Origin: an uncultured Acidobacteriota bacterium
GTDB lineage: Bacteria > Acidobacteriota > JAQAZP01
Reading direction: 5' to 3'
DNA length: 64,000 nt
NCBI GenBank assembly: GCA_963836075.1
Contig: CAWIIB010000009.1
Span: 3,330,442-3,394,441, forward strand
Below are positions 34,367 through 36,127 of this stretch, in pieces. Numbering within the stretch: the stretch's first letter is position 1; each line of letters opens with the position of its first letter. The position numbers and the translations under genes were made by a program. Under the pieces are notes generated by a model, which worked only from the letters and a program-made list of their open reading frames with translations, searched no databases and was not told where the DNA came from.

Positions 34367-36127
34367 ATGTCGATCACGGGCAATGACAAACCAGGGAAGA
34401 TCGAGCACATGCTGGCCGACAGTGATCTCCCCTTCGCTCACCGCAAAATGATGCTCAAACAGCTGATCAAGCACAGCAGCGAGGAGACGGATTCCATACT
34501 GGAGTCGATCCTCAACGGTGGTGAGAACAACAAACTGGACAAGACCCTGGCCCGCAAGGTCAAGTCGTACAACGAGAAGCTCAAGGCGCTGGAGGAGGGC
34601 CCGGTGCGGCCGGGCACCTTTCTTGGCTCCCGCCCGCACAGTAGTGGTGCGGTGACCCGTGTGCAGGTGAGGCTGGAGGACGGCACGACGGTGTTTCCGC
34701 TGCTGCCCCGCCCCCGTCTGCTGCGGGAACTGCGGCGGGGGGACTCCGTGGTGCTGGACGGTCAGGCCCAGGCCGTCATCTCCCGTGAACCCGCCGCTGA
34801 GTGGTCGGGGGAGGTGGCGACCTACGAACGGCGGATCGGTCCGGAGCATGTGGAGATTTCCGTCCGCGGGGACGAGCGCCATGTCTTCGACGCCTCCCAC
34901 GGGGTCATCGATCTGCTGAACCGGGAGAGTGTGGAGCCGGGCCGCCGGTTGCTGATCTGCCAGCGGCGGAAGTTCGTCATGGGGGTCGTGCCCGAGGAGG
35001 AGGGGCGGGTCCACTACCGCTATCTCGACCGGATGGCGGTGCCCGATGTGGTGGCGGAGCGGGACCTGGGAGATCCCCCGGCCTACCTCGACGAACTGAT
35101 GAGTCATCTGCGGATGGAGATGACCAGGCCCGATCTGCGCCGCCGCTACGGTCTGCGCCGCTGCGCGATGAAGCTGCTGGCCGGGATCAGCGGTTCGGGC
35201 AAGAGCTACTCGCTGCTGGCCCTGTGGAATGCGATGTACCAGCTGATGGCCGAAGTGACCGGAGTGCAGGTGGAGGATCTGCCGTCCCGGGTGATGCGCT
35301 TTCGGCCGGCCCAGCTGCTCAGCCACTGGTTCGGGGACAGTGACAGGAATATCGACCGCTTTTTCGGTGAGGTGCACCGGCTGGCCGACGAAAAATTTGC
35401 CGGCCCCGGGGGCAAGGTCTATGAACTGCCGGTGCTGGTGATCCTCGAGGAAGTGGATGGGATGAGCCGTGCCCGGGGGGGTGACGACATCTATGACCGG
35501 ATCATGTCCACCCTGCTGGAACTGCTTGACCCCACACGCCAGGCGCTCAGCGACCGCATGATCATCTTGGTGGGCACCACCAACGTGCCGGAGCAGATCG
35601 ATCCGGCCTTCCTGCGCCGGATCGGGGGGACCATCGAAACCTTTGGCCATCTCAATCGGAGGAATTTCAGGGAGGTGCTGCGCAAGCGGCTGCAGCGGAT
35701 ACCCCTGGCTGCCCGGGACGGAATGGGCGATGACGATCTGCTGCAGGGGATGGTCAACGAACTGACCTCCTGGCTTTTCAGTTCCAACGGAGAGGACCAC
35801 GGCCAGGTGGAGATTTCTCTGGTGGGCTCCGCCGAGCCGCTGGTCCACCGCCGCAGGGACTTTCTCACCGCCGGCATGGTGGACCGGGCCGTACAGCAGG
35901 TGGCCGATCTGGCCTGCACGGAAGAGGATGCCGGCAGCGCCAACCCCGGCCTGACCCCGGCGATGCTGAAAAAGGCGCTGGACCGCCAGGTGCGGGCCAT
36001 TGTGGACCTGCTCAGCCCGGGGAATGTGGGCAACTATCTGCAGTTGCCCGATGGGGTGCGGGTCCAGGGCATCAGGGTCATCGAGCGGCCGGTGATCCAT
36101 TCTTTTGAGCTGGTGCGGGCGAGCTGA
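34367..36127 (+). CDS. AAA+ ATPase with N-terminal coiled-coil and OB-like region (PAN/ARC/Rpt-like unfoldase architecture)
   Basis: RBS GGGAGGA 9 nt before ATG 34367; Walker A GISGSGKS, Walker B VLVILEEVD; charged helical N-terminus then beta-rich segment before the ATPase core. Confidence 0.7.
   Translation: MSITGNDKPGKIEHMLADSDLPFAHRKMMLKQLIKHSSEETDSILESILNGGENNKLDKTLARKVKSYNEKLKALEEGPVRPGTFLGSRPHSSGAVTRVQVRLEDGTTVFPLLPRPRLLRELRRGDSVVLDGQAQAVISREPAAEWSGEVATYERRIGPEHVEISVRGDERHVFDASHGVIDLLNRESVEPGRRLLICQRRKFVMGVVPEEEGRVHYRYLDRMAVPDVVAERDLGDPPAYLDELMSHLRMEMTRPDLRRRYGLRRCAMKLLAGISGSGKSYSLLALWNAMYQLMAEVTGVQVEDLPSRVMRFRPAQLLSHWFGDSDRNIDRFFGEVHRLADEKFAGPGGKVYELPVLVILEEVDGMSRARGGDDIYDRIMSTLLELLDPTRQALSDRMIILVGTTNVPEQIDPAFLRRIGGTIETFGHLNRRNFREVLRKRLQRIPLAARDGMGDDDLLQGMVNELTSWLFSSNGEDHGQVEISLVGSAEPLVHRRRDFLTAGMVDRAVQQVADLACTEEDAGSANPGLTPAMLKKALDRQVRAIVDLLSPGNVGNYLQLPDGVRVQGIRVIERPVIHSFELVRAS

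Follow-up and report, generated by a model that had tools for sequence, protein, structure and literature searches.

What does an ATPase of the proteasomal type do in an operon for ubiquitin-like tagging that is accompanied by no proteasome? The question is raised by a 64-kb stretch of DNA from an uncultured Acidobacteriota bacterium (contig CAWIIB010000009.1), referred to below as the window, in which the gene g07 encodes an AAA+ ATPase amid genes for two putative ubiquitin-like proteins (Ubls) and for E1-, E2-, RING- and JAB-type proteins. By both sequence and fold, the closest kin of the g07 product are the Mpa/ARC ATPases, with their tandem OB domains, and not PAN. New here is the recruitment of an Mpa-type ATPase into a duplicated bacterial Ubl cassette without a proteasome, in several phyla. 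We propose, with about even confidence, that g07 is a 20S-independent, Ubl-directed translocase of the Mpa/ARC type, a dedicated subunit of a mobile Ubl cassette that works together with the JAB deconjugases.

g07 encodes an ATPase of the Mpa/ARC type

34367..36127, + strand: g07, Mpa/ARC-type AAA+ ATPase, 586 aa (NCBIfam TIGR03689, PDB sequence match, AlphaFold2, Foldseek)
34394..34597, + strand: N-terminal helices of g07, aa 10-77, with a coiled-coil-like end (AlphaFold2 model)
34604..34987, + strand: tandem OB domains of g07, aa 80-141 and 149-207 (beta-strand pattern in the model, Prot_ATP_ID_OB_C)

The g07 open reading frame (ORF) begins with an ATG at 34367, 4 nt past the g06 stop codon and preceded by a Shine-Dalgarno-like GGGAGGA stretch, and its own stop codon ends at 36127; it is a real gene with exact coordinates, and a gene call in a public collection (P0001) yields the identical 586-aa product. 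An ORF of 1090 aa on the opposite strand (34196-37468, -), overlapping g07, Ubl2 and g09, was considered and rejected: third-position GC and length favored the + strand genes, the products of which have conserved homologs, and the antisense frame is one of the shadow ORFs common in GC-rich DNA.

Pfam identifies one AAA domain in g07 (E = 4.8e-14) and, below threshold, the proteasomal-ATPase OB domain Prot_ATP_ID_OB_C (E = 6e-4), which is also present among the precomputed annotations of many homologs. The best NCBIfam model is TIGR03689 (pup_AAA), which aligns to aa 62-559 (E = 8.4e-25) with 87.4 bits, below the family cutoff of 504.75. The CDC48, PAN and CdvC models reach 23-29 bits, including 23.9 bits against a cutoff of 500 for TIGR01242 (PAN/Rpt) and 28.6 bits against 802 for TIGR01243 (CDC48). 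The top match among PDB sequences is Mycobacterium tuberculosis Mpa (E = 1.7e-16, aa 130-540); the sequence and profile alignments to Mpa begin inside the tandem-OB region.

An AlphaFold2 model built from an alignment of 92 family sequences (pLDDT 89.6, pTM 0.73) was compared with the PDB using Foldseek, and all 30 of the 30 best chains were Mpa, followed by 26S Rpt subunits. The Mpa matches span 511-518 columns at about 21% identity, with E values down to 7e-30 and target-normalized TM scores up to 0.84. In the model, the long helix at aa 39-77 has an amphipathic character, its hydrophobic residues near the end (61, 65, 68, 72 and 75) falling in an a/d-like pattern, and is joined to the first OB domain by Gly78-Pro79, which is invariant in the family; the single AAA module (aa 239-548) is followed by a short C-terminal element. 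The protein thus has the architecture of Mpa/ARC, in which an N-terminal coiled coil leads into tandem OB domains and a single AAA module, and presumably forms a hexameric, homomeric ring.

The initial annotation, made from the sequence alone, had described a "PAN/ARC-like" AAA+ ATPase inside a Ubl operon, with a coiled-coil N terminus, an OB-like middle segment and a single AAA module. Most of this description holds: the TIGR03689 and Mpa matches, together with the recurrence of the cassette in 39 loci, place a proteasomal-type ATPase in such an operon, and structure prediction of the N-terminal region, the check that had been suggested, returns helices and tandem OB domains with Mpa as the top fold match. 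The middle segment is of the beta-rich OB type, comprising two domains instead of one, and of the double label the ARC half stands; PAN, with its single OB domain and HbYX (hydrophobic-Tyr-X) tail, does not fit. From Mpa/ARC proper, in turn, g07 departs in three respects: it scores below the family cutoff, has no docking tail and lacks linked Pup and 20S partners.

The motor residues are conserved

35183..35206, + strand: Walker A, GISGSGKS; G273, G276, G278 and K279 invariant
35321..35341, + strand: pore loop 1, S-H-W-F-G-D-S; W321 and G323 at least 90% conserved, aligned with K-F-V-G of Mpa
35432..35461, + strand: Walker B, VLVILEEVDG; E361 and E362 invariant
35576..35629, + strand: sensor-1 N406 and second region of homology; N406, R417 and R418 invariant, R417/R418 being the arginine fingers

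Conservation was assessed across 92 homologs sharing 35-52% identity with g07. The residue set of classical AAA unfoldases, that is, Walker A and B, sensor-1, arginine fingers and an aromatic-hydrophobic-Gly pore loop, is present, with the caveat of two consecutive glutamates in Walker B, to which we return below. This pattern suggests selection for ATP hydrolysis and substrate threading.

g07 belongs to a collinear cassette found in several phyla

The family is rare. A word-indexed search found 128 clusters at E <= 1e-5, the 120 matches listed being 36-57% identical, and an exhaustive search recovered 352 of 1.84 billion representatives at E <= 1e-30. All members found come from metagenomic sequence, and the named genomes are all uncultured metagenome-assembled genomes (MAGs). 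A collection with one genome per species contributed 37 loci, again all from MAGs, the record titles of which point mostly to Planctomycetota, Verrucomicrobiota and Deltaproteobacteria; the remaining loci are labeled Gemmatimonadetes, Eiseniibacteriota, Spirochaetales, Thermodesulfobacteriota, Bifidobacteriaceae, Alcaligenaceae or uncultured bacterium.

To compare gene content, the eleven neighboring products of the window were searched against all ORFs of 39 loci. The cassette is collinear and, on the + strand of the window, reads RING (g01), E1a (g02), g03, g04, Ubl1 (g05), g06, AAA (g07), Ubl2 (g08), g09, JAB (g10) and E1b (g11). Ubl2 lies downstream of the ATPase gene in 39 of the 39 loci, either directly or past one extra gene, and g09, JAB and E1b come next wherever the contig goes on. 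The upstream half was found in 25-28 loci. In four loci from Gemmataceae, Gemmatales and other Planctomycetota (L027, L028, L031 and L038), the five-gene core AAA-Ubl2-g09-JAB-E1b stands alone, the upstream half being undetectable in at least 4.7 kb. Two much more distant family members (261 and 218 bits) are likewise accompanied, in their cassettes, by a pair of ThiF genes and small genes of Ubl size, and no family gene was found outside a cassette among the 39 loci and three more distant ones. In the window, the conserved block is sharply bounded (29291-39175), and its genes overlap or lie at most about 105 nt apart.

In five loci, although not in the window, an extra gene of about 385-480 codons sits between the ATPase and Ubl2 (L011:7307-8464, L023:9592-10830, L030:11398-12843, L032:11762-12925 and L044:2965-4122). 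Its product combines an unassigned N-terminal domain with a weak, sub-threshold AAA/STAND-like P-loop domain.

The docking tail is missing and no protease travels with the cassette

36011..36124, + strand: C-terminal segment of g07, ending ...HSFELVRAS, semi-conserved in close relatives

Close relatives of g07 end in P..LP.EL.RA, with or without a variable extension, and distant relatives end differently. In agreement with the initial annotation, which had pointed to the lack of a HbYX-type tail after ...FELVRAS, no HbYX, GQYL or penultimate aromatic end was detected in about 100 homologs or in the 39 loci.

The same annotation had noted the lack of a 20S subunit nearby, and this, too, is borne out for the window. 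Pfam found no 20S (PF00227), HslV, ClpP, Lon, Pup or Pup-ligase (PafA/Dop) family in the scanned ORFs of the 64-kb window, the scan covering 52 of the 53 ORFs that third-position GC and length had marked as probable genes; ORFs of 127 aa (13298-13681) and 109 aa (61166-61495) and an ABC-F-like ORF (40056-41966) lay outside it. Pup, PafA/Dop and PrcA/PrcB were likewise missing from the precomputed Pfam calls of five cassette loci. In none of the loci compared does a chambered protease accompany the cassette as a conserved neighbor, and, apart from regulators, no flanking family recurs in more than five loci.

Downstream of the cassette, by 6-9 kb, two adjacent ORFs (44959-48448, -) together appear to encode a tricorn-type protease with PD40/DPPIV beta-propeller, Tricorn C1, Tricorn PDZ and peptidase S41 domains. 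As a candidate partner of g07 it was rejected; no other locus has it as a conserved neighbor of the cassette, and it is therefore probably an unrelated housekeeping protein.

Two candidate Ubls and two JAB-type proteins

32788..33081, + strand: g05, Ubl1, a variable N-terminal tail of about 18 aa and a domain of about 78 aa ending ...P[KR]xHLG
36174..36509, + strand: g08, Ubl2, a Gly/Pro-rich variable N-terminal tail of about 35 aa and a domain of about 65 aa ending in an invariant ...AGEKG
33187..34362, + strand: g06, 391 aa, putative JAB deconjugase with an extra N-terminal domain and a JAMM-like motif
37440..38348, + strand: g10, canonical JAB/JAMM metallopeptidase, E94...H151-S-H153-x7-S161-x2-D164

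Both Ubls are about 95-110 aa long, with a conserved domain of 65-78 aa and a variable N-terminal tail that is probably disordered. After ...P[KR]xHLG, Ubl1 either stops or carries a short variable tail. In the window, Ubl2 extends past AGEKG by a 12-aa tail, GRRRSHGGGSPC, which presumably has to be removed. A C-terminal glycine with a removable tail, encoded beside E1 and JAB genes, is a classic sign of a conjugatable Ubl. In profile comparisons with hhalign, Ubl1 aligned in register with ubiquitin at a non-significant E value of 0.089, and Ubl2 aligned partly in register, again non-significantly, with Escherichia coli MoaD and ThiS; weak SAMP2 matches were obtained for 3 of 30 Ubl2 members.

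In seven loci, Ubl2 and g09 form one polypeptide (L005, L006, L009, L015, L019, L022 and L042:6918-8354), with AGEKG or SVKG between the two parts. This fusion implies JAB cleavage to free the Ubl and argues for a direct partnership of Ubl2 and g09.

The g10 product matches Prok-JAB above threshold (E = 5.9e-8) and PRTRC_A below it (E = 4e-12). Pfam returned no match for g06, and a word-indexed search returned six homologs with no Pfam annotation. The invariant residues of g06, E217...H288-x-H290...S319-x-x-D322, nevertheless form a JAMM-like motif, accompanied by a Cys-rich insert (C302, C305 and C311), and hhalign aligned its HxH with that of g10, if weakly (E = 0.027), so that g06 is a probable divergent JAB. 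Taken with the ThiF domains, the HPN motif and cysteine of g03 and the C-terminal glycines of the Ubls, the JAMM motif of g10 completes the parts list of an E1/E2/JAB/Ubl operon.

Conjugation enzymes and accessory proteins

29291..29932, + strand: g01, RING-like zinc finger, putative E3; Prok-RING_1 (E = 1.4e-5) and zf-RING_2 (E = 0.004), both below threshold
29944..31191, + strand: g02, E1a, ThiF-family adenylating enzyme, 415 aa; PF00899 (E = 5.4e-24)
31268..31945, + strand: g03, E2-like, HPN motif and invariant Cys147 (FHPNI...LCLG)
31950..32765, + strand: g04, 271 aa, conserved in 25 loci
36503..37453, + strand: g09, 316 aa, beta-meander, invariant Cys179 after a PALLN motif, helical C-terminal half
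38345..39175, + strand: g11, E1b, small ThiF-family adenylating enzyme, 276 aa; PF00899 (E = 6e-16)

Both E1-type enzymes are readily recognized. In addition to the ThiF domain, g02, with homologs in 27 loci, matches PADLOC models of E1-E2 (Cap2-type) proteins down to E = 1.5e-14, and g11 matches PRTRC_ThiF over its full length, below threshold (29 bits against 144.75). Single-sequence scans with Pfam, NCBIfam and PADLOC returned nothing for g03, g04, g05, g06, g08 and g09, and profile hidden Markov models of g09, g06, g04 and g03 gave chance-level matches only against all PDB sequences. The alignment of g03 with human UBE2D2 brings the HPN motif and the catalytic cysteine into register (E = 0.0064), and on this basis, together with the invariant Cys147, g03 is classed as an E2. 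The g09 family, for which a database search gave 756 hits, has no name and no Pfam entry; it is possibly a very divergent E2/UBC-like enzyme, and neither a Foldseek search of the PDB (nothing significant) nor an hhalign comparison with g03 (no relationship) linked it to a known fold. For g04, there were no matches in Pfam, NCBIfam, PADLOC or PDB sequences, and because Trp, Arg, Gly and Pro make up most of its invariant positions, it is likely a non-catalytic adaptor.

The RING-like g01, with its cysteine pattern at aa 145-195, has homologs in 19 other loci (phmmer, E < 1e-5), where it always comes first in the cassette. Its N-terminal part of about 130 aa (29291-29700) contains a conserved ...RVNG...AP...L..GD... 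pattern that looks FHA-like by eye and was undetected by Pfam. In three loci, L011 (13018-14916), L022 and L038, a Ser/Thr protein kinase that begins with a zinc ribbon is encoded 1.3-4 kb off the cassette. Phospho-dependent input to the cassette is conceivable.

Comparison with known systems

The closest known relatives of g07, Mpa and ARC, share with it the N-terminal helices, tandem OB domains, single classical AAA module and aromatic-hydrophobic-Gly pore loop, as well as linkage to a small protein tag with a disordered end. The differences concern the low identity, the lack of GQYL, the Glu-Glu Walker B and the lack of linked 20S genes. The tags differ as well, Mpa acting on disordered Pup, attached and detached via PafA/Dop, whereas the cassette encodes probable beta-grasp Ubls with E1, E2, RING and JAB proteins, and so do the hosts, which are Actinobacteria in the case of Mpa/ARC and Planctomycetota, Verrucomicrobiota and others in the case of the g07 family.

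The base and lid of the 26S proteasome (Rpt1-6 and Rpn11) and PAN resemble the cassette in combining an AAA ring that has a coiled-coil/OB port with a JAB protein, Ub-like tags and E1/E2/RING enzymes, and a conserved Gly-Pro joins helix to OB domain in g07 as in Rpt/PAN. In contrast to these, g07 has two OB domains instead of one, no HbYX tail and no 20S, and the coupling of JAB to the ring, unlike that of Rpn11 to Rpt, is suggested here by gene adjacency only. With Cdc48/p97/VAT, g07 shares partial similarity of the AAA domain and a possible analogy as a Ub-directed unfoldase or segregase that works with deubiquitinases and needs no direct hand-off to a protease; Cdc48 itself, however, stacks two AAA rings and carries an N domain of the double-psi-barrel type, compared with one AAA module and an OB-type N-terminal half in g07.

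Among bacterial Ub-like operons, including Bil, Bub, the Cap2/Cap3 pair of type II CBASS and the RING/E1/E2/Ubl/JAB operons of Burroughs et al. 2011, none has been described with an AAA+ ATPase in the literature searched, which left out some likely relevant papers of the Aravind group. The RING/E1/E2/Ubl/JAB operons have been noted in Actinobacteria, Planctomycetes and Acidobacteria, and described without an ATPase. Compared with Bil, Bub and Cap2/3, the present cassette contains two E1s, two Ubls and two JAB-type proteins in addition to the ATPase. The PRTRC system is similar to the g10-g11 pair, which matches PRTRC_A (TIGR03735) and PRTRC_ThiF (TIGR03736) over the full length, and it, too, includes a small Ubl-like gene; both scores, however, fall below the PRTRC cutoffs (for PRTRC_A, 46 vs. 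101.8 bits), g08 and g09 match no PRTRC model, the window contains no ParB, and PRTRC as described by its NCBIfam models has no AAA+ ATPase. From these comparisons, g10-g11 are judged to be related to the PRTRC cassette without being members of it. Finally, the operon of Caldiarchaeum subterraneum consists of five genes, encoding Ub, E1, E2, a small RING protein and Rpn11 (PMC4197634). It resembles the cassette in being a compact operon with a complete Ub-like cascade, a RING E3 and a JAB deconjugase; it lacks an ATPase, PAN and 20S being encoded elsewhere, whereas in the cassette the ATPase is inside and the system is duplicated.

A proposed mechanism and its alternatives

In the mechanism that we propose for g07, E1b and the possible E2-like protein g09 would attach Ubl2 or Ubl1 to targets via the C-terminal glycine, and, in full cassettes, E1a, the E2 g03 and the RING protein would join in the attachment. 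The ATPase ring would recognize the Ubl at its N-terminal helices or OB ring and engage a flexible segment, most plausibly the variable N-terminal tail of the Ubl, as Mpa does with Pup, whereupon the tagged protein would be pulled through the pore by ATP. The JAB proteins g10 and/or g06 would mature the Ubl precursors and strip or recycle the tag, a role like that of Rpn11 on the Rpt ring. The g07 ring would not dock on a 20S core; the outcome would be unfolding, extraction or inactivation of the tagged proteins, and later proteolysis, if any, would be left to unlinked housekeeping proteases. The initial annotation had likewise favored Ubl-dependent unfolding or extraction, a reading consistent with the invariant motor residues, the Ubl2-g09-JAB-E1b linkage, the lack of a conserved protease and the tailed Ubls; its term "Cdc48/Rpt-like" was imprecise in that the nearest relatives are Mpa/ARC. 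A bolder formulation, to our minds somewhat unlikely, is that of a proteasome cap without a proteasome, in which two E1s, E2s, a RING E3, two Ubls, Rpn11-like JABs and the AAA+ ring would make up one mobile machine that neutralizes Ubl-tagged, possibly phage, proteins via ATP-driven unfolding and not proteolysis.

Several points weigh against the proposed translocase. We infer the functional tie between ATPase and Ubl, as we do Ubl recognition, threading, JAB coupling and the biological role. The assignment of the beta-grasp fold to Ubl1 and Ubl2 is itself weak, drawing on size, the C-terminal glycine, gene context and alignments with E values of 0.09-0.3. The Walker B motif of the whole g07 family is Glu-Glu, compared with Asp-Glu in classical AAA proteins, although a glutamate at this position could still ligate Mg2+. 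The protease negatives cover the window and the loci, with the rest of the host genomes lying outside them. Moreover, Mpa binds 20S only weakly via its tail, so that tail-independent docking is conceivable from sequence alone.

The alternative that survives best, if an unlikely one, is that the ring, instead of processing tagged substrates, regulates the conjugation machinery or serves as its assembly chaperone, remodeling or unfolding proteins of the cassette itself. In precursors or Ubl2-g09 fusions, the C terminus of Ubl2 might thereby become accessible to JAB cleavage, or the ring might strip Ubl~enzyme complexes so that the system is reset or silenced, similar to the action of TRIP13/Pch2 on HORMA-CD-NTase in CBASS. 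In many loci, Ubl2 is extended at its C terminus or fused to g09, creating a need for processing, and the tightest linkage of the ATPase is to the Ubl2-g09-JAB-E1b core. The only PADLOC matches of the ATPase, moreover, are weak TRIP13 models (E = 1e-4); these reflect generic AAA similarity, for which reason membership of g07 in TRIP13 was rejected, and both sequence and fold are far nearer to the Mpa/Rpt translocases. The entry port formed by the coiled coil and tandem OB domains is a hallmark of substrate-threading proteasomal ATPases, which also speaks against a purely regulatory ring, as does the processing of Ubl precursors by characterized JABs such as CsRpn11 (PMC6043591) without an ATPase.

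Less probable again is a degradative role in which g07 feeds an unlinked non-20S chambered protease of the host, such as ClpP, HslV or a Lon/FtsH-type enzyme. Relatives of Mpa, PAN and Rpt normally feed a peptidase chamber, the cassette encodes no protease of its own, and the P..LP.EL.RA segment of close relatives could be a docking element. That segment, however, is lost in distant cassette-linked members. Docking to ClpP needs an IGF/LGF loop, and docking to HslV an HslU-type C terminus; the variable tails of the family show no conserved docking-type end, although no search was aimed at an IGF/LGF-type loop. Furthermore, a cassette that crosses phyla would need to match a wide range of host proteases.

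Very improbable, in our view, is that g07 is an ordinary Mpa/ARC activator of a 20S proteasome encoded elsewhere, its place in the operon being either incidental or part of a Ubl-to-20S pathway. The best sequence and structure matches are indeed Mpa, and the negatives for 20S do not extend to the rest of the genome. The family score, at 87 bits against 504.75, is nevertheless far below the cutoff, no member has a GQYL or HbYX end, neither the window nor the five loci with Pfam calls contain Pup, PafA/Dop or PrcAB, and the gene occurs only inside the cassette, in the 39 loci and the three more distant ones; to our knowledge, 20S proteasomes are also uncommon in most of the host phyla. The least probable alternative is a catalytically crippled scaffold that binds Ubl or partners without translocating, for which the Asp-to-Glu change in Walker B throughout the family would speak, and against which stand the other catalytic residues and the pore loop, invariant or nearly so at 35-52% identity.

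Mobility, regulation and flanking genes

27343..28611, - strand: helix-turn-helix (HTH) protein, 422 aa, divergent, with an N-terminal Cro/C1-type HTH (Pfam HTH_26, E = 0.0015, below threshold)

The cassette is horizontally mobile, to judge from its sharp borders, its spread across phyla and two further finds. In locus L002, an integrase abuts it, and on the viral contig L045 (IMGVR_UViG_3300015259_000002), an E1b-like gene is directly followed by a gene for a 35%-identical ATPase (2-2189); the contig ends at the E1b gene, and a terminase large subunit gene and a portal gene (6307-11142) lie about 4 kb and about 7 kb from the pair, respectively.

Divergently transcribed HTH-type regulators adjoin the cassette in many loci. 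In the window, this position is taken by the 422-aa HTH protein, homologs of which are encoded within about 0.5-4.4 kb of the cassette in eight other loci and which is likely a regulator and optional accessory. Of the genes flanking the cassette in the window, those that recur elsewhere are this upstream regulator and a few response-regulator/kinase-type matches. The intergenic region between the regulator and g01 (28611-29291) is AT-richer than its surroundings (GC 0.535 in the bin 28001-30000, compared with about 0.64-0.68) and contains all five sigma-70-like promoter matches found in 28400-39500, where 1.9 were expected; it is likely a divergent control region.

About 3-6 kb upstream of the cassette, the window also encodes a histidine kinase and an NtrC-type sigma-54-dependent response regulator (22951-25943, -), and kinase/NtrC-type regulators occur near the cassette, at differing positions, in L030, L035, L018 and L038.

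The sporadic occurrence across phyla, sharp borders, regulators, integrase and phage contig argue for a conflict or defense island, or a selfish element, over housekeeping proteostasis, and the role of the cassette is probably one in conflict or defense. PADLOC returned no known system model that matches the cassette beyond the E1 domain.

Farther upstream, the genes at 5966-16562 form a cluster that resembles an archaeal-type/modified mevalonate-prenyl pathway, unusual for a bacterium, and that includes a GHMP kinase, FMN-dependent dehydrogenase, UbiD-family decarboxylase, aconitase X (AcnX, E = 1e-156), amino-acid-kinase-family protein and UbiA prenyltransferase.

Implications

Eukaryotes combine ubiquitin tagging, the Rpt ATPases and the JAB peptidase Rpn11 in one unit; in archaea and Actinobacteria, tag systems (Ub-like/SAMP and Pup) and proteasomal ATPases are encoded separately. 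Should the substrates of the g07 ring prove to be Ubl-tagged proteins, bacteria would possess a coupling of ubiquitin-like tags to a motor of the proteasomal type, and Ubl-directed unfolding would work without a chambered protease. The cassette would then offer a compact, probably homomeric system for the study of tag recognition, JAB-ring coupling and the initiation of unfolding. Its island-like distribution, regulators, integrase (in one genome) and phage-borne relative also make it a candidate for a new conflict or defense system. Were it indeed a proteasome cap without a proteasome, it would be the first prokaryotic operon to physically link beta-grasp tagging with a proteasomal-type ATPase, and a living model for the coupling of the 19S base and Rpn11 with ubiquitin before, or independently of, the 20S proteasome.

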